Positions 4,183-39,502 of a DNA stretch of 40,719 nt are shown here, piece after piece. The stretch is from Candidatus Thorarchaeota archaeon. GTDB lineage: Archaea > Asgardarchaeota > Thorarchaeia > Thorarchaeales > Thorarchaeaceae. How positions within the stretch are numbered: position 1 is the stretch's first letter; every line of letters starts with the position of its first letter. Made by a program: the position numbers and the translations under genes. The notes under the pieces were generated by a model. The model worked only from the letters and a program-made list of their open reading frames with translations. It was not told the origin of the DNA and made no database searches. The DNA lies in NCBI GenBank assembly GCA_003345545.1, contig PRDH01000030.1, forward strand, positions 1 to 40,719, given 5' to 3'.

Positions 4183-5175
4183 TTGGAGAAGGACAAAGCG
4201 ATTGCAGTCGGTGTGGTTGTCATTGTCGTTGTGGCAATCGGAATCATCGCTCTCTGGAATCCAGCACCGACCCCGGACGTACGAATTGGCTACCTATCCA
4301 AGGACCTCCATCAGCTTGCTCTACGGGTAGCTCTGGAGAACGGCCTATTTGAGCGAGAGAATCTTACCGTGGAGCTTGTCCAGTTTGGTAATGGAGGTCT
4401 CGAAATGGATGGGTTCCTTGCAGGGCAGATAGATATGGGTTACTTGGGAGCTGCTCCTGCGATTGTGAAACGTATCAACCAGGACATTCCAATCACAGTC
4501 CTGGCTGCGGCGAATCTTGAGGGCTCTGCCATAATGGTATCAAAAGAAGAATATGATGCTGGGCACGTCACAACCATTACTGATCTTGTTGGCAAGGGTG
4601 TCTATCAACCTGGTCCTTCAACTGTTCAAAACTTTCTGCTTCGCTTGGCCCTAAATCAATCTGGTCTCAGCTATTCGAACATCACGGCACTTACGATACA
4701 GCCTTCCCTCATGGCTGATTCTCTTACTGCTGAGAATCCTGCCTTTATTGCATGGGAACCATTCAATGCAAAGGCTGAGTATGATAACAAATCAGTACCG
4801 CTTGTTCTCTCAAGTGACATCTGGCCGCGTCATCCCTGCTGTCTAGTAGCTTCGGATAATACGTTTCTCACTTCTCATCCAGATATTGTACAGAAGGTTC
4901 TAGATATTCATGTCGAAGCTGAAGGGTGGATTCTGAACAACACAGAGGATGCAATATCAATCGCTCAGGACTGGCTTGAGATGGAAGAGAGCCCCGTAAC
5001 GACAGCTTTCAATCGAATCATCTTTGACTATAATGTGAATAGAACTGGCCTGGAGATCTACCTCAATTTCCTTATCGATGAAGAACAACTCCTTCCGGAT
5101 AAGATACCTGCTGACACCTCGGCGTTCTTGGATGCTTTCATAGACACGACCTATGTTGATGGTCTTCATTTGTGA
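4183..5175 (+). CDS. ABC transporter substrate-binding protein, NitT/TauT (SsuA/NrtA-like) family
   Basis: N-terminal TM anchor, VRIGYL, GQIDMGYLGAAP, AWEPF, WPRHPCC. Confidence 0.9.
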   Translation: MEKDKAIAVGVVVIVVVAIGIIALWNPAPTPDVRIGYLSKDLHQLALRVALENGLFERENLTVELVQFGNGGLEMDGFLAGQIDMGYLGAAPAIVKRINQDIPITVLAAANLEGSAIMVSKEEYDAGHVTTITDLVGKGVYQPGPSTVQNFLLRLALNQSGLSYSNITALTIQPSLMADSLTAENPAFIAWEPFNAKAEYDNKSVPLVLSSDIWPRHPCCLVASDNTFLTSHPDIVQKVLDIHVEAEGWILNNTEDAISIAQDWLEMEESPVTTAFNRIIFDYNVNRTGLEIYLNFLIDEEQLLPDKIPADTSAFLDAFIDTTYVDGLHL

Positions 5176-5229
5176 CACTGTAAAACGGTAGACAAAAAAG
5201 CGTAGCATCTCCTAGGAGCCCCGAGAAGA

Positions 5230-6063
5230 ATGTCATTATCAGAAACGGAGCAGAATACTAGGCTTAATAGTACCAAGAGCGGTCGCAAGAACCTTCGTGG
5301 TTCTTTTCAATGGATTATTCTTAGAATCATCATACCCGCAATCATCCTCATCGTGCTCTGGCAGCTCATAGCATACCTGACACAGACATCGTTATTTGAT
5401 GTAATCAATGCTCTAGTACGCCTAGCGCTCGTGGGCGATAGTGACGGTCATCTTCTCTCAGAGCACATACAGATGAGCTTGACACGAGTGATTATTGGCT
5501 TCACGTTTGCTGCCGCCACAGGCATTCCCTTAGGTATTCTGATAGGACGCTATCATTTGTTCAATTCTGTGCTCGGCCCTGTTGTGGAGGCAATGCGTCC
5601 CATTCCTCCAATTGCGTGGATTCCTCTAGCAATACTTCTCTTCCGCTCAAACATGCTGGGTGCCCAAGTCTTCATCATATGGGTCGGAGCTTTCTTCCCC
5701 ATTCTCATCAATACAACAACAGGAGTCAAACGAACAGAGCCTGTGCATATTGATGTTGCCAAGACCTTTGGCGCAACCGAATGGCACATTCTGTCAAGAG
5801 TGGTGGTTCCCTCAGCAGGACCAGAGGTGTTCGCCGGTCTCAGAATTGGCTTCGGTATCGGTTGGATGTGTCTTGTCGCAGCTGAGATGATTGGGGGCGG
5901 GCTCGGGCTTGGTTACCTTGTCCTTATCATGCAGCAAGTAGGTCAGACGGGTGCCGTCATTGCGAGCATGCTCCTTATTGGTCTGGTTGGCTTTCTCATC
6001 AGTTACCTCTTCTTGTACATTGAGAAATACTTGCTTAGGTGGAGACAGACTGTTTCGGTTTGA
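5230..6063 (+). CDS. ABC transporter permease, NitT/TauT family
   Basis: SLTRVIIGF, RPIPPIAWIPL, EAA-like loop AKTFGA, LVAAEMIGG. Confidence 0.92.
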   Translation: MSLSETEQNTRLNSTKSGRKNLRGSFQWIILRIIIPAIILIVLWQLIAYLTQTSLFDVINALVRLALVGDSDGHLLSEHIQMSLTRVIIGFTFAAATGIPLGILIGRYHLFNSVLGPVVEAMRPIPPIAWIPLAILLFRSNMLGAQVFIIWVGAFFPILINTTTGVKRTEPVHIDVAKTFGATEWHILSRVVVPSAGPEVFAGLRIGFGIGWMCLVAAEMIGGGLGLGYLVLIMQQVGQTGAVIASMLLIGLVGFLISYLFLYIEKYLLRWRQTVSV

Positions 6064-6856
6064 ATGATCTCTTCATTGCTTTCTGTTGCTCAATACTTAG
6101 GATGTCAAGGATCTTGCTACGGTAGGAGAGACACTCTTGTGAGGTTCTTATCCGAGGTCTCGGAATCTCCACCTTGTATTCAGCGATGATTCTTGCAGGC
6201 AGGTTGCTCAGCACTAGAATCCTATCTGACATGAAGACTGCCTCATCAACATTATGTGAAACAAATGCAATCGTGGATCCGGTCAAGTCTTGGATTCTGA
6301 GGAACTCCTCTTGAAGATAGTTTCTGGTTTGCGCATCGAGATTGGAGAAGGCTTCATCAGCAACTAGTATATCAGGCGACACCACAAGACTACGCGCCAT
6401 CTCTGTCTTCCTTGCCTGGCCTCCGGATATCTCGTGCGGGTAATTCTTCTCAAGACCTTCCATTCCCACGATTTTAATGATCTCCTCAGACTTCTCTCTT
6501 CGCTCCTTTTCTGGAACTCCCTTTACCTCCAGGCCGAACTCGATATTCTGCCTGACTGTCCTCCAAGGAAACAATGATTCCTGTTGGAATATGTAGCCTA
6601 CACGATTATGACCTGCTTCCACTTCTTGTCCATCGATGAGTATCTGACCTTCATCAGGCTCGAGTAGTCCTGCAATGATTTTGAGGAGCGTTGTCTTGCC
6701 GCACCCACTTGGTCCGACGATACCCAAGAATTCACCCTTAGATACTTCAAAGGATATGTGATCTAAGACTTGGGTTTCTCCTGAGTCGTCATTTGGATAT
6801 GCCTTTGTCAGATTTCGGACCGAGAGCTTGAACATTTTTGCATCCATTATGGTCAT
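6035..6856 (-). CDS. ABC transporter ATP-binding protein, NitT/TauT family
   Basis: Walker A GPSGCGKTT, Q-loop FQQ, ISGGQ signature, Walker B LVADEAF, H-loop SHN. Confidence 0.93.
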   Translation of the reverse strand: MTIMDAKMFKLSVRNLTKAYPNDDSGETQVLDHISFEVSKGEFLGIVGPSGCGKTTLLKIIAGLLEPDEGQILIDGQEVEAGHNRVGYIFQQESLFPWRTVRQNIEFGLEVKGVPEKERREKSEEIIKIVGMEGLEKNYPHEISGGQARKTEMARSLVVSPDILVADEAFSNLDAQTRNYLQEEFLRIQDLTGSTIAFVSHNVDEAVFMSDRILVLSNLPARIIAEYKVEIPRPRIRTSQECLSYRSKILDILSIEQQKAMKRSFKPKQSVST

Positions 6857-7027: not shown

Positions 7028-9343
7028 TTGGGTTCGCCAAAGATACTCTTCGAAATAGAAGACGATGAGAGCACTAGTGCGATTGCAGTCGGCGATGTCA
7101 CCGGTTCCGGAACAATGGAGCTGTGTACTGGTGGACGTGACGGTGTCCTCCGGCTTTATAGTGCCAGTCATGCAGAGTTCTTGTTCCTTACTCAATACGA
7201 TGTTGGTGGCAGCATCCTTTCCATCGAGATTGCTGACGCCAACAACGACGGGCTGATGGAGATCATAGTTGGTCGTGCTATTGGCCCAAAGGAAACACCC
7301 GGTATTGCTGGTACAGTTCAAGTATTCAGGTATGCTCTCAAGGGTCAGTTCGAAATACTTGGCGAGTACGCCGTGGACAGATTCGTTACAACGGTCCGTG
7401 TGACTGACGTTACCGGCGACGAGAAGAATGAAATCATGGTCGGTGGCAGTGACTCTACATTGCGGATTCTCAATATGGACACTCAAAACAACATCACGCA
7501 GTTTTCTATGCACCGACTCCATGATATGCCCCTCGCTATCGGGATCTGCGATGTCGATGGTGATGAGATTGATGAGATTGTCACAGGCAACAGGGATAAC
7601 ACTCTGAGAGTCTTCAAAGTGCGGGACCATTCCTTGGACCAGATTGATGTTCTTGAGCTTCCCAGTCCGATTGTATCCTTGGCGTCTGGAGACATGCTTG
7701 GCGATCGCAAGATGGAGCTAGCTGTTGTCACACGTGATGGTTCAATCCGCGTATATCGCAATGAAGAGAGTAAACTCGATCTGTTCTCCAAACTGGAAAA
7801 CGTGAAGGCCATGTCTGTGAGGGTTCAAGAAATCAACGCAGACCACTTGGACGAGGTTATTGTGGCCACCCAAGATCATAAGGTACGATTCTACAGTCTT
7901 TACATGGCTGACCTGTTACTGCTTTCAGAGATTGACATCGGAAGCAAGATTCTTGCAATCAATGTCGGTGACGCGGGAGGCGACGGTCGGAAAGAGGTAC
8001 AGGTCGGTGTTTCCAATGGGCCTCTCAAGGTGATTGAGGGTCTCTACAAGATTATTCCTGTCTTTGAAGTCAATCCCGAGGCAAAGACTGGGACTGCTCT
8101 CCGAGGAAAGCTTACAGTCTATAACGTCAGTGATGAATCGGTGAATGGCATCGCTGGCAAGATCTATCACTTCCCGAAAGATGACATGGATGTTGAGCCA
8201 CAGCAGCTTCGATTTGACCTAGCTCCTGGAGAGAACAAGAGCATCGAGATTCAGCTCAATCCAAAGAAAGAGGGGACTATAATCATTCGTCCCATTGTAT
8301 TGATGTGGACCGACGTGTCTGGTCAGGTGAGGCAGGTCACCACACCAGAAACGGCTATTCTTGTCAAGATGGGCGCAGCTGTTGCAGCTCATGCAGCTAC
8401 GCCCCCGGTACCAATCGAGCCCACCGCCACTGTTTCCGCGAAAGAGACCCTAGTAGAAGAAGAGTCTCCCTTCGGGCCGGTCGTTGGTACAGGGTTCAAA
8501 GACCTTGCGCAGAAAGTGGCTGCCGCCAGGATTCTTGAGGAAACCATGCCAGAGGGCGGTGCCGACTCGCTCAAGGCTGCAGAGGAGCTCTTGGACCAAT
8601 TGTTCGGAGCAGATGAGTCCAGTAAGGCGATGACCGAGTTTGATGATGTGGAGAAGCTCATGACTGAGCCTGCTCCCGTTGTGACTCCAGCTATTGTTGA
8701 AACGACTGATACTGAGAGCGCCATCGTGACTGAGATTCGGAACAGACGACCCAAAGCTCCACGACCCGGTTCTGCTCCTGATTCATATCAGTACCTGTTC
8801 AAACTAATGGTCGTTGGAGAAGGTGCAGTTGGAAAGACAACCCTCGTCAATCGATATGTCACAGGTACCTTTGAGCGTGACTACAAGACCACTATCGGCT
8901 CCCAGTTCGCCGTGAAACTTACTCACATATCACCCCCTGATGCTGAGTACGCCACTGGTATCAAAATCCAAGCATGGGATGTTGCTGGACAGGCTCGATT
9001 CAAGGCTGTACGCAAAATGTACTATTCCGGAGCAGCTGGTGTCATCATTGTCTTCGATGTCACACGAAGACGTTCATTCACAGAGTTGTCTAAGTGGGTG
9101 CAAGAGGCAGATGAGTCCATTGGGGCTCGCGTACCCACGGTCTGTGTCGGTAACAAGACGGACCTACCTGATCGTGCAGTACCCTCTGACGAGGCCAAGC
9201 GTTGGGCGGAAGATCAGGGCTTCGTCTATATGGAGAGCTCTGCTAAGACGGGTGATGGTGTCGCAGACATGTTCACTGTCCTTGCTGAGATAATGTGGCG
9301 CGAGGCTCGAAAAGCCCAAGAGGGCAGGAAGACAGAAATCTAG
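7028..9343 (+). CDS. FG-GAP-like 7-blade beta-propeller + Ig-like domain + acidic/Pro-rich linker + Rab-like small GTPase fusion
   Basis: Seven repeats of hxxxDxxGDxxxEhxxGxxDxxhRhY/F. The C-terminal G domain has GEGAVGKT, YKTTIG, WDVAGQ, NKTD and SAK. Confidence 0.9.
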   Translation: MGSPKILFEIEDDESTSAIAVGDVTGSGTMELCTGGRDGVLRLYSASHAEFLFLTQYDVGGSILSIEIADANNDGLMEIIVGRAIGPKETPGIAGTVQVFRYALKGQFEILGEYAVDRFVTTVRVTDVTGDEKNEIMVGGSDSTLRILNMDTQNNITQFSMHRLHDMPLAIGICDVDGDEIDEIVTGNRDNTLRVFKVRDHSLDQIDVLELPSPIVSLASGDMLGDRKMELAVVTRDGSIRVYRNEESKLDLFSKLENVKAMSVRVQEINADHLDEVIVATQDHKVRFYSLYMADLLLLSEIDIGSKILAINVGDAGGDGRKEVQVGVSNGPLKVIEGLYKIIPVFEVNPEAKTGTALRGKLTVYNVSDESVNGIAGKIYHFPKDDMDVEPQQLRFDLAPGENKSIEIQLNPKKEGTIIIRPIVLMWTDVSGQVRQVTTPETAILVKMGAAVAAHAATPPVPIEPTATVSAKETLVEEESPFGPVVGTGFKDLAQKVAAARILEETMPEGGADSLKAAEELLDQLFGADESSKAMTEFDDVEKLMTEPAPVVTPAIVETTDTESAIVTEIRNRRPKAPRPGSAPDSYQYLFKLMVVGEGAVGKTTLVNRYVTGTFERDYKTTIGSQFAVKLTHISPPDAEYATGIKIQAWDVAGQARFKAVRKMYYSGAAGVIIVFDVTRRRSFTELSKWVQEADESIGARVPTVCVGNKTDLPDRAVPSDEAKRWAEDQGFVYMESSAKTGDGVADMFTVLAEIMWREARKAQEGRKTEI

Positions 9344-9437: not shown

Positions 9438-9884
9438 TTACTGCTGCTTTGTCTTCCAACAGGGTAGATTGAGTCTACTCTTTATCCATCGCTTTTCAGG
9501 GCTCTCTTCAGTTGACCTGCCAGGATTTGTGCAGTTACACCAGCTTGAACCACCGATAGTACGGACTGTCACGCAGTAGTAACAGTTTTGGCATCTCCGC
9601 ATAGGAAACAGTCTTTCAGACAATACAGGGGGTTCATATTTCTCCTTTTTCTTGATGGGTGTGCTCTTCTCTGCGTGTCTGTCGTTGCTGGAAGTTTCTG
9701 GCTCCTTCCTGTACTTGGCTAGTGTCTTCCTTGCATCTTTCTTGAGCATGGATGTCACATAATCCTCGTCAGTCACATCTGCTGATCGGGAACGATTGTC
9801 GGGTATGTCCAGGCTCACAAAATCATCGAGTAGTTCTGAAACTGTAACATCCTCAGCTGACTTGTCCTTCTTTTCTTTCCTCAT
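9438..9884 (-). CDS. Hypothetical protein with a charged N-terminus and a Cys-rich C-terminal domain
   Basis: CQNCYYC...WCNCTNP...PCW, a probable metal-binding module. Confidence 0.6.
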   Translation of the reverse strand: MRKEKKDKSAEDVTVSELLDDFVSLDIPDNRSRSADVTDEDYVTSMLKKDARKTLAKYRKEPETSSNDRHAEKSTPIKKKEKYEPPVLSERLFPMRRCQNCYYCVTVRTIGGSSWCNCTNPGRSTEESPEKRWIKSRLNLPCWKTKQQ

Positions 9885-9988: not shown

Positions 9989-10585
9989 CTAGTTCGCTTG
10001 AATCGCATTGACTCCCTCATCAAAGGCAGTCAAATTGGCTGTATCAGAGCCCAGAAGTGCTTGCAGGGACTTTCGAATGTTTGCTCGACTCAAAGGGCTT
10101 TGTGGAAGACTTGACATAGAACCCAACATGAATGAATTCAGCACACGAGGAGAACCGATTCGGGAAAGTGCTGCATCTGTATCAAGCATGTATATCTGCC
10201 TACAGAGTTTTGAAAGTGCTGCCGAGATTCTCTCTAATGCTGGATACTCAATCTCTCCAGAGTCAATGTCTGCTGTTGGGACTTTCGTAAGACTGGTTAT
10301 GGCTATGGTGCGTCCTCCTGCGTACTCCGCTGCTGCTCTGAACGCCTCCAATGGCTCAAGCCCAAGCAAGATATCGACTTCTCCCTTGGGGATGAGTGGT
10401 GCCCAGTCCCTTGTTCCAATGCGGAGGTGCGTCAAGACGCTGCCTCCTCGTCGTGATGCCCCAAAGGTATCACCAACTACTGGTTGTAGGCCTTGTCGTA
10501 TTGCAGCATCTGCCAGTACCCTTCCACAGACAAGGTTCCCCTGTCCTCCTACACCGGCCACAAGAATATTGAAGGGCTCTCTCAC
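9989..10585 (-). CDS. iorB: Indolepyruvate:ferredoxin oxidoreductase beta subunit
   Basis: ILVAGVGGQG, GASRRGGSVLTHLRIG, LEPLEA; overlaps the iorA stop. Confidence 0.9.
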   Translation of the reverse strand: MREPFNILVAGVGGQGNLVCGRVLADAAIRQGLQPVVGDTFGASRRGGSVLTHLRIGTRDWAPLIPKGEVDILLGLEPLEAFRAAAEYAGGRTIAITSLTKVPTADIDSGEIEYPALERISAALSKLCRQIYMLDTDAALSRIGSPRVLNSFMLGSMSSLPQSPLSRANIRKSLQALLGSDTANLTAFDEGVNAIQAN

Positions 10586-12453
10586 TGTAGTTTCTCTCCC
10601 TTGATTGCATCATGAGGGCAGACATCAATACAGGCTCCACATCTGACACACATCGAATCCAAAATGACCGGTTGCTCATTTGCGCTGTCCCAACTGATAG
10701 CGGGACAACCGAAATCCGCAAAGCATATTCTACATTTCTCGCCTCTACAGATTTTTGGATCTATCAGGAAAACATCATTCTTTGATTCTTGCTTACTTGT
10801 GTCCTGATCAAGCCTACAGATGCTATTCAGAAGAAGAACCTTCAATCCGCTTCTGCTGATAGTCGAGTGAAGGAGGTCAATAAGACCTTTGATGTCATTT
10901 GCATCTCCCCTGGCATAACTGTCTGGCTGTAGAGCCTTCACGATATCCTCTATCTCCACTCGCCTGAAGCCTTGCGCTTGGTGGCGGGATCCTGGATGTG
11001 TCTGGAATCCTGTCATTGCTGTCGTTGCATTGTCCAGAATGACGAAGGTGAGATTGGCGTTCTTATGTCTTGCATTGACTAGTCCTGGTAAGCAGGCATG
11101 AAAGAATGTTGAATCGCCAGCAACAGCAACAACCTTGGAATCAAACCCGAATCTCTCAAGTTTGCTGAGACCACAGGCCACTCCAATCCCAGAACCCATT
11201 GCCTGCATGGTGTTCATAGCCTCATCATAGAATACACCAAGGGAGTAGCATCCAATGTCGCCTGCAACGACAAGTTTTCCACCCACCCTCTTCTTGACTT
11301 TTCGGATAGCCCAATAGAAATTACGATGGGTACATCCGGCACAAAAGGTCAAGGGTCTCTTGATGAGGAGGTCTGCTCCTGCTGCCTGTCCCAGTTGTTT
11401 CTCATCCACACGAGTTCCATCTATCCTTCCAATGGCTGTCCTGACAGTATCCGTGTCCATCTCTCCGTAACTCGGAATGTGTCCTGTCCGCTTGCCATAA
11501 AACGCCGGTAATTCCTCAAGGTCTGCTGAGAGAGTCCTGACTTCATCTTCCACGAAGGGGTCGGTTTCTTCAACGAAGAGAACTCGATTGGCGTTTTCAA
11601 GCAGACTAGTTAGAGTCTTCTTAGGCAATGGATGTGTTGTCACTATGTTTAGATGGCCAATCTTCGTAGACTCAATAAGGTGTAGAGCCTCACGTACATA
11701 CATTGAACAGATGCCACTCGAGATTACCAGTAGTTCCATATCTTTGATGTTAGTATGCATGTTAAGGTCTGACGTTTCAAACTCCCTGACGATTCTTTCC
11801 ATTTTTTCCAGCAAGTCTCTATGCCTGAGGTGCGGCATAGGCACATTATACAGTTTCTCAGGTAGCACCCCAGCTGCCTTCTTCCTCTTTGAAAGCATCC
11901 CTTTTCCTACCAATCCTCGGGAGTGAGAGAGCCTTGTGGTGCTCCTCACCATGACAGGTACTTCGAACTGCTGAGAGAGTTTGAATGCAAATCGTGTGAC
12001 ATCCTTTGCCTCTTGATAGGTTGAAGGTTCTAACAACGGGATTTGGGCTGCCTTTGCATAGAATCTAGAGTCTTGCTCGTTGCTGGAACTATGCCCTCTC
12101 GGATCATCGCATACCACAATGACAAGACCCCCCTTTCCTGTGCCTGAGAGATTCACATTGAGAAGAAAATCGGAAGCCACATTGAGGCCGAGGGATTTCA
12201 TCGAGCATAAAGCGGGAATCCCTGCCCAGCTGGCTCCAGCGGCGGCTTCAAGTGCTACCTTCTCATTTGTGCTCCACTCTACATAGATATCGTGCTTATC
12301 TGCAAGATCGAACAATTCGGTTGCAATCTCGGTTGCTGGAGTCCCTGGGTAGGATGTACAGAATCCAATCCCTGCCTCTATTGCTCCGCGAGCAATTGCC
12401 TCATTGCCGCTCATCATAGTTCTATGCTGAGAGTCGTTCATCCCGTCTGTCAT
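10582..12453 (-). CDS. iorA: Indolepyruvate:ferredoxin oxidoreductase alpha subunit
   Basis: GNEAIARGA, YPGTP, NEKVALE, SSSNEQDSR, FCAGCTH, GDIGCY, GDSTFFH TPP motif, C-terminal ferredoxin CVRCGACIDVCP. Confidence 0.93.
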   Translation of the reverse strand: MTDGMNDSQHRTMMSGNEAIARGAIEAGIGFCTSYPGTPATEIATELFDLADKHDIYVEWSTNEKVALEAAAGASWAGIPALCSMKSLGLNVASDFLLNVNLSGTGKGGLVIVVCDDPRGHSSSNEQDSRFYAKAAQIPLLEPSTYQEAKDVTRFAFKLSQQFEVPVMVRSTTRLSHSRGLVGKGMLSKRKKAAGVLPEKLYNVPMPHLRHRDLLEKMERIVREFETSDLNMHTNIKDMELLVISSGICSMYVREALHLIESTKIGHLNIVTTHPLPKKTLTSLLENANRVLFVEETDPFVEDEVRTLSADLEELPAFYGKRTGHIPSYGEMDTDTVRTAIGRIDGTRVDEKQLGQAAGADLLIKRPLTFCAGCTHRNFYWAIRKVKKRVGGKLVVAGDIGCYSLGVFYDEAMNTMQAMGSGIGVACGLSKLERFGFDSKVVAVAGDSTFFHACLPGLVNARHKNANLTFVILDNATTAMTGFQTHPGSRHQAQGFRRVEIEDIVKALQPDSYARGDANDIKGLIDLLHSTISRSGLKVLLLNSICRLDQDTSKQESKNDVFLIDPKICRGEKCRICFADFGCPAISWDSANEQPVILDSMCVRCGACIDVCPHDAIKGEKLQ

Positions 12454-12545
12454 TCTTACTCGGCATCAAAAAACACTTTCGTATCTACCCTGTGTTTTCC
12501 AGAAGAGAAAATAAGGCATTTGTTCAACCACATGACGAGCGCAAA

Positions 12546-13619
12546 ATGGCTGAAGGACAAGAAAGCGAATCTGCAGGGGCCAAGAGAATTACTTCTCTCC
12601 TCTCATTCTCCCACGATAAAGATGTTGACGGATTAGCTTCAGCTGCTATTGTATGGCGGTATGCCAACTCAAAAGCGCTTGAGTTCGGTGTGAATCTCAC
12701 TGACTATGGTGCCTTCGAACAAGTGTTCACGGGAGTTGCATCACGTCGTGATACACTGATTGTTGTCACCGATCTCGGAATGGATGAAACAACGCAAGAC
12801 ATCATTATCAGGGGTCTCTCACGTGCATTGACTCAGGGATGCCGCCTTGTCTGGTTGGACCATCACCAATGGTCTGATCAGTCAATCAAGGCAATACTTT
12901 CACTTCCCAACAGACCCGTGTTGAAGCTAAACCATGACTACTGTTCAGCCGAGATAGCACAGAAGGTGCTAATGCCCCGTGATGAAGTCTGTGCTGAGCT
13001 TGCAAAAATCGCTCACGACACTGATTTCAATCTCAGGGAGATACCTGTTGCCAACGCACTGACGGATGCTGTGTCAGTCCTCCGATTCGGGGCAATTGAC
13101 AGACGTGAAGAGGTTCTAGACGCACTCTATCCAGTCCTTTCAAAGCTTGCAGAGAGTGGCGTGGTCGGAGTCTGGGATGATGCGAACAAGAAGTTCAGGG
13201 ATCAACTACTAGAGAAACGTGTTGACAATTATCGGAAAGAGAAAGCCAAGAAGATGCGAAAGGCGCTTGCAGGACATAGTGACCATGTTCTCTATAATCG
13301 ACTCGTCCGGATAGTTGAGATTCCCAATGGTCTGACCTCCACGGATATGGGCACTTTTGCCTCTGATCCAGAGAATCTGATTTTTGATGGTGAGTCATTG
13401 GACGTCGCAGATCTACTTCTCATGTTGAGCCAGGGTGGAATGCTTGGAATACGGAGAGGGCGAGAAACCGTATTGTGTAACATGGCTGCAAAGCTCTTCA
13501 ATGGTGGTGGTCACCCATATGCTGCTGGCGGCGAGTACGGGCTGTATGAGAATTTTCAGGCCGCCTGTGATGACATATTTGTGACACTCTCAAAGGACAA
13601 GACTTGGGTAGTAGAGTAG
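12546..13619 (+). CDS. DHH/DHHA1-family phosphoesterase (NrnA/RecJ superfamily)
   Basis: SHDKDVDG, VTDLG, WLDHH and GGGHPYAAG motifs. The ATG at 12546 is preferred to the GTG at 12492. Confidence 0.85.
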   Translation: MAEGQESESAGAKRITSLLSFSHDKDVDGLASAAIVWRYANSKALEFGVNLTDYGAFEQVFTGVASRRDTLIVVTDLGMDETTQDIIIRGLSRALTQGCRLVWLDHHQWSDQSIKAILSLPNRPVLKLNHDYCSAEIAQKVLMPRDEVCAELAKIAHDTDFNLREIPVANALTDAVSVLRFGAIDRREEVLDALYPVLSKLAESGVVGVWDDANKKFRDQLLEKRVDNYRKEKAKKMRKALAGHSDHVLYNRLVRIVEIPNGLTSTDMGTFASDPENLIFDGESLDVADLLLMLSQGGMLGIRRGRETVLCNMAAKLFNGGGHPYAAGGEYGLYENFQAACDDIFVTLSKDKTWVVE

Positions 13620-37857: not shown

Positions 37858-39132
37858 CTGGCTGGTCACAATATTCAGGCTCTTCTCATTAAGGAGCGCG
37901 GAGGAATGCCTCTGTTCTTCATGAAGTTGGACCCCAAAGCGCAGGACTTGGATCCCATGCTTGTTTCAGGATTCTTCACAGCAATCCAGAGTTTTTCCAA
38001 AGAAGTCATCGAACGCGACAGTTCCATGTTCCAGGTCGATTATGGCGCACGCCTTTTTACGGTGATATCAGGCGAGGTCACGGATTTCGTTATTGTCAGC
38101 CTTGGCGAGTGGGACGATGATGTGACTCCTATCTTGAAGTCCCTTCTTGAGGAGTTTGAGGGCATCTGGATTAAGGACCTCTCCAGAAAAGAAAAAGATG
38201 CCTTGAAAATCGATGTGGAGTTCCCTGATTTTCGGGAAGGAATTGTTCAGAATCTGTCCTTCAGAAAGTTGTCTGGGAGTTGGGTTCCATTCCTCGTCGA
38301 GTCTGATGGAAAAGGCAAAATCAAGTCGGATAGTGTAGTTCTGTCATACATCAATGGTCTCAGCACGGTTGACGATATCTCGATGAACAGCGGACTCGGA
38401 GCCGACGAGGTAGTGGCCGAGATTACGCGGCTCTGGGCTCTTGGGAAGGTGAGATTCGGCAGTATACTCAGTCGAGCTGATATTCTTGCATCGACGTCGA
38501 AGATTGATCGTCTGCTTCAACTCTCATCACCCCAAAGAGCAGAACTGTCGCGAAGGAATCCCGAGGTCATTGCTCTGCTGCCTCGCCTGTCAATGATGTT
38601 TGATGGGCGACGATCCGTGGGGGCAATAATCGATGGTCTTGCCAAAGAATACAAGGAGAACCAAGTAATGGAGGTCATAGATACACTACTCGAAACGGGT
38701 GCGATTGTTGCTCTGTCCCCGGAGAAGAGAAGGCTTCTTCTTGTGCAAGAGGCTCTTGAACTTGCAATTCGTGTTGCCGAGCGAATCTACACCCCCGTAG
38801 CTGCTAGGCAGTTCTTGAACATTGCTATGAACAAGGTTCCAGCTACTGAGGTTGCCGGAGTCTTCAGGATGACAGATACCTCATGGAGCATTGACTATAA
38901 CTCTCGACTGTATGAACACCTCGATCCGCGGAGGCTCATGAACCTCTATGCTGAATGGATGAAGCTTCTGGCGCAATACATAGGCGCCCTAGACAAGAAC
39001 AGGATATTGAAGTTTGCAGAGGCACTGACTGAGATCTATCGAAGCTATCTGTTCGAGCGCTATACTAGTAGTGACTTGCGTGGCTTTGAGGAGTTCACGT
39101 TTTGGCTTGAGATGAATTGCTTAGGAGTCTGA
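37858..39132 (+). CDS. NPRL2/Npr2-like protein (longin domain + winged-helix repeats)
   Basis: Longin helix DPMLVSGFFTAIQSFSKE; VPFL...VLSYINGLSTVDDIS...LWALGKVRFGSIL; second winged helix FDGRRSVGAI. Start extended from ATG 37906 to CTG 37858 (see findings). Confidence 0.7.
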   Translation: MAGHNIQALLIKERGGMPLFFMKLDPKAQDLDPMLVSGFFTAIQSFSKEVIERDSSMFQVDYGARLFTVISGEVTDFVIVSLGEWDDDVTPILKSLLEEFEGIWIKDLSRKEKDALKIDVEFPDFREGIVQNLSFRKLSGSWVPFLVESDGKGKIKSDSVVLSYINGLSTVDDISMNSGLGADEVVAEITRLWALGKVRFGSILSRADILASTSKIDRLLQLSSPQRAELSRRNPEVIALLPRLSMMFDGRRSVGAIIDGLAKEYKENQVMEVIDTLLETGAIVALSPEKRRLLLVQEALELAIRVAERIYTPVAARQFLNIAMNKVPATEVAGVFRMTDTSWSIDYNSRLYEHLDPRRLMNLYAEWMKLLAQYIGALDKNRILKFAEALTEIYRSYLFERYTSSDLRGFEEFTFWLEMNCLGV

Positions 39133-39148: not shown

Positions 39149-39502
39149 GTGATGTCTGATATTGCACGACCAATTCACGAGGTTGCTGACATATTGAGCC
39201 GTCGGGGGCAGACAATCTATGGCAAAGGAAAGATGATCGAGTTATGTTCAGAGGCCGGGGTTTCTCTCATGGATGACATTGCTGCTGAGCTTGGAGAGTC
39301 GGACACGGAGGCCTCTCTCCTACGCTTTGTCGTCAGCTATGCAAAACTGAACCCCGCCGCAAAGCTCACTGTCCTGACGGTCTCGAAGCTTCATGACCTG
39401 TCCATACCGAAGGAGCTCCTCGAGAAGCGCAAAGTCTTCACGGATATTCTTGACTCATTGTCTGACTTTAGACACGATATGACTGAACGTCTTCGTGGCT
39501 GA
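39149..39502 (+). CDS. Small helical hypothetical protein, probably co-transcribed with the NPRL2-like gene
   Basis: Starts 16 nt after the upstream stop, with a strong AGGAGGT Shine-Dalgarno. Confidence 0.75.
   Translation: MMSDIARPIHEVADILSRRGQTIYGKGKMIELCSEAGVSLMDDIAAELGESDTEASLLRFVVSYAKLNPAAKLTVLTVSKLHDLSIPKELLEKRKVFTDILDSLSDFRHDMTERLRG

Follow-up and report, generated by a model that had tools for sequence, protein, structure and literature searches.

Ras-superfamily G domains that sit within long multidomain chains, together with protein-interaction modules, are familiar from the large Rabs (Rab44/45/CRACR2A), in which the partner domains are of the EF-hand/coiled-coil type, and from the Roco proteins (LRRK2), in which they take the form LRR-COR-kinase-WD40. 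Here, we describe a chain of comparable composition, for which no homology to these proteins is implied beyond the G domain: a fusion of a beta-propeller, an immunoglobulin-like (Ig) domain and a Rab-like GTPase, encoded at positions 7028–9343 of the forward strand of a 40,719-nucleotide stretch of DNA (contig PRDH01000030.1 of assembly GCA_003345545.1, positions 1 to 40,719; hereafter the window) from a Candidatus Thorarchaeota archaeon. Rab-like GTPases rank among the eukaryotic signature proteins of Asgard archaea; in the fusion, the switch is covalently bound to a large, predicted protein-binding platform. Tran et al. 2024 (PMC10933270) describe Thor-Rab as well as fusions of GTPases with longin and roadblock domains, and a term search of that paper returned no mention of a propeller. 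An October 2026 preprint (10.64898/2026.10.28.762692) names, in one phrase, a ‘BBS7/ITFG2’ structural cluster as exclusive to Asgard archaea and eukaryotes, and places it with those clusters that correspond to entries in earlier catalogues of eukaryotic signature proteins; that phrase is the sole trace found in the literature. No published description of a propeller-Ig-Rab fusion was found in the literature on Asgard BBSome and FG-GAP proteins, GTPase-propeller fusions and Thorarchaeota Rab proteins.

The gene is a single intact frame of 771 codons on the plus strand, initiated by TTG and closed by a stop codon at 9341–9343, and the N-terminus of its product is that of the orthologues, which carry M-x-S-P-(K/R)-I-L at the same residue. 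Four regions follow one another along the chain: a seven-bladed FG-GAP-type beta-propeller (residues 1–340; 7028–8047), recognized by Pfam, an AlphaFold2 model, Foldseek and VIA comparisons and a scan for the blade motif; an Ig-like beta-sandwich of apparently generic kind (residues 341–450; 8048–8377), detected in models and fold searches and by a weak match to Pfam ASH; an acidic linker rich in Ala, Glu, Pro and Thr (residues 451–585; 8378–8782); and a Rab-like small GTPase domain (residues 586–771; 8783–9340) that matches Pfam Ras, TIGR00231 and structures in the PDB. A motif-complete Rab-type G domain is joined, in one chain and via a linker of ~135 residues with conserved length, to a seven-bladed propeller and an Ig domain. 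Neither a signal peptide nor a transmembrane segment was found in the 771 residues, the latter because the 19-residue Kyte–Doolittle mean peaks at only 1.38. Cys residues occur only at positions 33, 174 and 706, and the prenylatable C-terminal Cys tail (CC, CXC or CAAX) of eukaryotic Rab proper is not present in the chain, which ends in ...AQEGRKTEI. With neither a signal peptide nor a transmembrane segment, the protein is predicted to be cytosolic.

The same architecture is present in more than 120 protein clusters (63–87% identity, at least 95% query coverage and in nearly all cases 99–100%), most of them labelled just ‘GTP-binding protein [Candidatus Thorarchaeota archaeon]’ and some located on contigs up to 3.16 Mb in length; the shorter matches that bear a source name are all labelled partial. 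Residues 1–455 were used to search 400 Asgard genomes in all six frames (E ≤ 1e-20). The fusion was recovered as a single copy in 77 of the 85 genomes of its own family and in the single genome sampled from a sister family within the same order, and no match was obtained at this threshold in the 314 genomes that represented 31 further Asgard families. The complete orthologous frames, of 757–826 residues, are open and free of internal stops. Clustering at 50% identity yielded three further family representatives, including P0123, a protein of 781 residues that is 42% identical to the fusion and likewise carries a Ras domain at its end. A word-indexed search with the propeller profile, a method blind to distant relatives, returned only pieces of the fusion cut off at contig ends, along with a few FG-GAP proteins; neither a genuinely split form nor a protein from a eukaryote was among them. 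The fusion gene is single-copy, near-universal in its family and under strong constraint, and it is restricted to one Asgard order, Thorarchaeales. The survey across Asgard genomes called for in a preliminary description of this locus, made from the sequence alone, has thus found the fusion conserved in its relatives.

The G domain shows an intact set of nucleotide-binding motifs. Pfam Ras matches residues 592–754 at 4e-46, TIGR00231 matches at 1.7e-23, and Roc and Arf also match the C-terminal part. In 14 orthologues with identities down to 46%, the G1/P-loop GEGAVGKT (residues 597–604; 8816–8839), T622, the G3/switch II motif DVAGQ with the predicted catalytic Gln655 (residues 651–655; 8978–8992) and the G4 motif NKTD (residues 709–712; 9152–9163) are invariant, and the G5 motif SAK (residues 738–740; 9239–9247) is nearly so; by individual position, the whole of G1, the D, G and Q of G3, the N, K and D of G4 and the S and A of G5 do not vary in the alignment, and the Lys of G5 occurs in 90% or more of the rows. 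Over the blocks of switch I and switch II, mean column identity in 120 orthologues reaches 0.99–1.00. Strings resembling the five RabF motifs were located at residues 623–627 (IGSQF), 646–650 (KIQAW), 657–661 (RFKAV), 665–669 (YYSGA) and 674–679 (IVFDVT). The best PDB match is the crystallized Thorarchaeota protein Thor-Rab (7EZB, 4e-43), followed by Rab14, Rab11, Rab1, Sec4 and Ypt1, and all 60 of the PDB matches listed belong to the Rab family. Judged from its sequence, the domain belongs to the Ras superfamily and appears closest to Rab rather than to Ras, Rho, Arf or Ran, and most probably works as an active switch whose binding surface is conserved.

The fused G domains, with that of P0123 included, make up one clade (support 94/96), as would be expected if the fusion arose once. 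In the genome from which the window was taken, ~26 Ras-superfamily matches were counted; as several of these sit in larger frames of 447–649 residues, multidomain G proteins are common in this organism. The nearest paralogue of the fused G domain is a 195-residue stand-alone Rab-like GTPase (contig 29, 14846–15433, plus strand) that shares 51% identity with it and matches Thor-Rab 7EZB at 3e-55. On the 3′ side of this stand-alone gene, an open reading frame of 194 residues with no Pfam family begins after 88 nucleotides, and is followed by a NAD kinase gene.

The N-terminal half of the protein was assigned by both sequence and predicted structure. Its Pfam matches, all of which exceed the cut-offs of that database, are to FG-GAP_3 (PF13517; 1.4e-18 over five stretches, with a score of 67.7 bits against a gathering cut-off of 26.9), BBS2_Mid (3.7e-15), Beta-prop_BBS7 (1.3e-14) and Itfg2 (1.6e-9, spanning ~90 of 330 model positions); a match to ASH at residues 353–418 is sub-threshold. 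The AlphaFold2 model of residues 1–455, built on 15 orthologues (predicted local distance difference test score, pLDDT, 89; predicted template modelling score 0.84), comprises seven four-stranded blades and a beta-sandwich at residues 342–447, which follows blade 7 directly, with no intervening helix, and reaches a pLDDT of 94 when modelled on its own. At least five of the blades carry the motif D-x-x-G-D...E-(I/L/V)...D-x-x-(L/I)-(R/K)-(V/I/L)-(F/Y). The Ig domain matches TRAP-beta, MSP, CARDB, macroglobulin MG, BBS1 GAE, ASH and the adaptin ear within ~3 Z units of one another, so that, from these model comparisons, it appears to be generic, with BBS1 GAE level with CARDB, macroglobulin and TRAP-beta.

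In an exhaustive HMMER search, the nearest non-orthologues were of two kinds, namely large proteins with several FG-GAP_3 propellers (1e-30 to 1e-14) and stand-alone propellers of ~400 residues, including Asgard ones from Helarchaeales and Promethearchaeota. The first of the ten rows returned by a fold search of the ESM Atlas is an Asgard propeller cluster labelled BBS2_Mid/BBS7; the other nine are bacterial in eight cases and from Bathyarchaeota in one, and most of them combine FG-GAP repeats with a surface or Ig-type module (DUF11, ASH/HYDIN-like Ig, FlgD_ig, Big_3_5 or dockerin). The bacterial FG-GAP proteins with Ig domains superpose on the propeller and the Ig domain jointly, with template modelling (TM) scores of 0.67–0.74.

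Three further propeller proteins were observed in the course of this work. A 337-residue stand-alone paralogue without a signal peptide (contig 12, 82049–83062, plus strand) matches FG-GAP_3 (8.5e-10), BBS7 (7e-9) and Itfg2 (1e-6) in Pfam and is 28% identical to blades 3–7 of the fusion; this genome is therefore predicted to encode, besides the fusion, an unfused cytosolic propeller of that class. An open reading frame of 2277 residues (contig 9, 36625–43458, minus strand) has FG-GAP-like blades with 30% identity over 126 residues to blades 5–7, and is probably a giant FG-GAP surface protein like those that dominate the list of distant matches. P0153, a 796-residue protein from Promethearchaeota, combines a cytosolic propeller of the same kind with a winged-helix-like repeat array (Pfam DUF5817_CT), and is one further architecture built on this propeller class.

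The linker is nearly constant in length across 120 orthologues and contains three conserved islands. Island 1, PFGPVVGTGF (residues 481–490; 8468–8497, plus strand), has a mean column identity of 0.81 in these orthologues. A candidate amphipathic helix, DSLKAAEELLDQLFG (residues 513–527; 8564–8608, plus strand), has column identities of 0.70–0.86 and a hydrophobic moment of 0.54, the top value within the linker, and was found in every aligned orthologue except P0123, the most distant. A basic, proline-containing stretch, RNRRPKAPRPG (residues 571–581; 8738–8770, plus strand), abuts the G domain and is retained even in P0123. From its pattern of conservation, the linker appears to be more than a featureless leash. 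The acidic cluster with FGPV was also considered as a motif for binding a gamma-ear/GAE domain; this idea was dropped because the Gly and the residues that follow it are not constant among the orthologues, which have FG, FS, FT, FA, FP or FL at the site.

The composition set out in the preliminary description has therefore held up throughout. Its seven FG-GAP-type blades, one of them quoted as a string that lies at residues 171–197, are borne out by the FG-GAP_3 matches and the seven-bladed model, its ~100-residue beta-sandwich by the model of residues 342–447, and its acidic, Pro-rich linker by a segment of 133–135 residues with a net charge of −13 (133 residues when counted as 453–585). The full G domain with equivalents of the five RabF motifs was likewise recovered, with every string present and G1–G5 intact, and the expectation of a cytosolic, unprenylated protein agrees with the lack of a signal peptide, a transmembrane segment and a C-terminal Cys.

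Taken together, these results are best explained by a Thorarchaeales-specific cytoplasmic multidomain Rab-like GTPase, in which a Rab-type switch, paralogous to Thor-Rab, is tethered to its own propeller-Ig platform; we give this explanation a probability of roughly 0.6. The G domain would cycle between GTP and GDP forms, and its invariant switch and RabF surface would engage a conserved partner, either in cis (the propeller, the Ig domain or the linker helix) or in trans (a guanine nucleotide exchange factor, a GTPase-activating protein or an effector). The propeller-Ig module would act as a protein-binding platform with its availability or location set by the switch, such that the nucleotide state may govern either the cis interaction or whether the platform is recruited to a partner in trans; in sum, a Rab would be held beside a built-in effector or adaptor platform. 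The propeller-Ig cassette itself may derive from the widespread prokaryotic architecture of FG-GAP_3 propeller plus Ig domain, redeployed in the cytosol as in the Asgard stand-alone propellers, and the propeller would belong to the same broad class as those of BBS1/2/7/9 and ITFG2 rather than being their demonstrated ancestor. Kept as one copy per genome almost throughout the family, the fusion offers a tractable handle on what an archaeal Rab-like switch controls.

Several observations weigh against this explanation. The function proposed for the fusion is deduced from its domains, and no operon partner was found at the locus, where the neighbouring genes suggest no shared function. The protein has no obvious membrane anchor, and a role in trafficking is therefore only an analogy. 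Contact between the G domain and its own propeller is a candidate cis interaction; a predicted complex of residues 1–455 with residues 456–771, both supplied as alignments, scored 0.10 (mark 0.32) and was weighed neither way, and a language-model search with the whole 771-residue protein gave no usable match. Finally, eukaryotic BBS2, BBS7 and ITFG2 rank above bacterial FG-GAP proteins, both in the comparisons with solved structures and when the propeller is searched with a language model, and this higher rank leaves room for a closer tie to the eukaryotic propellers.

The best surviving alternative, which we consider unlikely although credible, is a signalling or polarity GTPase that is not of the trafficking type, in which the propeller-Ig module is a sensor or an oligomerization domain, as in prokaryotic G proteins of the Roco or MglA type, and the Rab likeness reflects only common Asgard descent. 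In its favour, the fusion lacks a lipid anchor and an amphipathic N-terminus, and its gene has no neighbour related to membranes; multidomain Ras-superfamily frames are, as noted above, frequent in this genome; and, according to PMC10933270, Thor-Rab and other Asgard proteins failed to target membranes in HeLa cells. Pfam, however, finds none of the COR, kinase, roadblock and longin domains in the fusion, and the best eukaryotic matches of its G domain are Rab1, Rab11 and Rab14, accompanied by the RabF-like motifs.

A more specific and distinctly improbable alternative is that the propeller, perhaps with the Ig domain, belongs to the same lineage as BBS1/2/7/9 and ITFG2, and that the fusion is a relic of an early partnership between GTPase and propeller like that of ARL6 with BBS1. 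The comparisons with solved structures point in this direction: in Foldseek searches of the PDB the top nine matches are all to BBS2, BBS9, BBS7 and BBS1 (2.4e-19 to 4e-14), with integrin alpha6 at 4e-14 and ITFG2 at 1.4e-13, and a family profile run against the PDB gave ITFG2 at 3.7e-8, BBS7 at 1e-3 and BBS2 at 7e-3, compared with 0.3 for integrin alpha-V. In the language-model search, BBS2 (0.91 and 0.90), BBS7 (0.90) and ITFG2 (0.89) follow just below the Asgard propeller cluster (0.92) and above generic FG-GAP proteins (0.88), although by the tool's own calibration scores near 0.9 are leads only. The Asgard-eukaryote-exclusive ‘BBS7/ITFG2’ cluster of the 2026 preprint agrees with such a kinship at the level of its label. 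Against it, the margin of BBS and ITFG2 proteins over unrelated WD40 propellers is just 1–3 Z units (VIA), and the Pfam cross-matches are generic, because BBS2_Mid, Itfg2, BBS7 and BBS1 recur in dockerin- or DUF11-bearing FG-GAP_3 proteins, of unstated origin. A control, the stand-alone Helarchaeales propeller MHC1591288.1 (P0182), which has no signal peptide, outscores the fusion against both BBS2 (5e-6) and ITFG2 (6e-6), compared with 1e-3 to 7e-3 for the single fusion sequence, and the bacterial FG-GAP proteins with Ig domains, as described above, cover both domains together. Across the 400 Asgard genomes, Pfam Itfg2 produced partial matches (~100 of 330 positions) in 29 genomes, too short to speak on kinship, and at the per-stretch threshold of that scan no match in the present genome.

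What follows the propeller also argues against this kinship. The coiled coil, platform and alpha-helical hairpin of BBS2/7/9 are absent after the fusion propeller, no Pfam BBS C-terminal domain was detected, and there is no alpha-solenoid, the hallmark of protocoatomers, since the model is all-beta by DSSP to residue 447 and gives way to the linker and the G domain. The GTPase is Rab-like and not Arf/Arl-like, and the fusion is missing from the 314 genomes searched in other Asgard families. Because the post-propeller BBS parts and an alpha-solenoid are absent, we read the BBSome and KICSTOR likeness as membership of one broad propeller class, which Asgard archaea deploy in cytosolic proteins of several designs, and not as evidence of specific ancestry. 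The candidate proto-coat of the preliminary description is improbable and finds no support beyond this resemblance of class. Its link to the BBSome and KICSTOR survives in part: the best solved-structure matches are indeed BBS2/9/7/1 and ITFG2, but a specific link is not supported, as the control propeller matches more strongly and the Ig domain is generic. The converse outcome that it named, best matches to bacterial FG-GAP proteins with a CARDB-like Ig domain, is nearly reached in the ESM Atlas, where bacterial FG-GAP proteins with Ig domains match both domains; solved structures give BBS proteins.

A bolder version of this kinship holds that cytosolic Asgard FG-GAP-type propellers, whether stand-alone, longin-fused or Rab-fused, are the true source of the BBS1/2/7/9 and ITFG2 propellers, and that the fusion preserves the ancestral ARL6-BBS1-like partnership in one chain, with the linker helix as an auto-regulatory ligand; we regard it as a long shot, a shade more doubtful than the kinship itself. 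On this point some caution is warranted in general, as the labels ‘BBS2’, ‘BBS7’ and ‘ITFG2’ that Pfam and Foldseek attach to Asgard proteins denote a propeller class to which ordinary prokaryotic FG-GAP proteins also belong, and such labels without a phylogeny should not be counted as ancestors of the BBSome or KICSTOR. Last, an artefact, whether a chimeric assembly (the misassembly feared in the preliminary description), a two-gene read-through or a decaying pseudogene, is refuted to a vanishingly small residual probability because the intact frame recurs across clusters and genomes, being uninterrupted by stops on the long contigs and in 78 other genomes with every domain strongly conserved, and no support for it was found, the short forms being only contig-end fragments.

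The surroundings of the gene are conserved as well. Its flanks in the window encode an ATP-binding cassette (ABC) transporter with an NMT1-type binding protein, a permease and an ATPase (4183–6856) on one side and an indolepyruvate/2-oxoacid:ferredoxin oxidoreductase and a DHH-family protein (9989–13619) on the other, and the order of ABC-transporter substrate-binding protein, permease, ATPase, fusion, indolepyruvate oxidoreductase, DHH protein and TrmB-like genes is kept in ten other genera. The fusion gene is divergent from the upstream ABC ATPase gene and convergent with its downstream neighbour, and appears monocistronic; the shared gene order looks like general long-range colinearity and not like an operon of which the fusion is part. 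An open reading frame of 148 residues (9438–9884, minus strand), located between the fusion and the genes for indolepyruvate oxidoreductase, has no Pfam family and no counterpart at the syntenic loci of the ten other genera; it may be a lineage-specific insertion, or no gene at all. Farther along the window are a longin/NPRL2-like gene (37906–39132, plus strand) and a small partner (39149–39502, plus strand), neither of which matches Pfam. The NPRL2-like gene, 28 kb downstream, was considered as an echo of the KICSTOR-GATOR1 association and rejected: in other genera it is found on another contig or ~550 kb away, and since it is unlinked there, it is not taken to be functionally linked to the fusion.

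Among the systems described so far, the fusion is most readily compared with Thor-Rab (PDB 7EZB, 7EZD and 7EZE), which has the same G1–G5 and RabF-like motifs and likewise no prenylation Cys. However, Thor-Rab is a single domain of 182 residues, whereas the fused G domain comes last in a chain of 771 residues, preceded by the propeller, the Ig domain and a linker that carries motifs, and belongs to a clade of its own. The prokaryotic FG-GAP_3 proteins with Ig domains, which are mostly secreted or on the cell surface, share the repeat family, and their propeller-then-Ig unit superposes on that of the fusion; in contrast to the predicted cytosolic fusion they carry signal peptides, dockerin, DUF11 and similar modules and no GTPase, and the fusion blades add to theirs a WD-like D-x-x-(L/I)-R-(V/I)-(F/Y) strand. 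The Asgard stand-alone propellers (P0182, P0153 and the 337-residue paralogue) have the same type of blade and no signal peptide, and both searches of the ESM Atlas rank their cluster nearest, but they lack the Ig domain, linker and GTPase and are only ~28–35% identical over parts of the fusion propeller. ITFG2 of KICSTOR (PDB 9V6E and 9O5A) differs from the fused propeller in that it stands alone as a propeller protein, one of the four subunits of its complex. The BBSome subunits BBS1/2/7/9 with ARL6 (PDB 6VBU, 6VOA and 4V0N) resemble the fusion in having a cytosolic seven-bladed FG-GAP-like propeller, with an Ig-like (GAE) domain later in the chain, and in the pairing of a small GTPase with a propeller. 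Sequence identity is 12–17%, and the fusion has neither the coiled coil, platform and alpha-hairpin of BBS2/7/9 nor the helical insertion of BBS1, and the GTPase that the BBSome meets as a separate Arf-like protein is, in the Thorarchaeales fusion, a Rab-like domain of the same chain.

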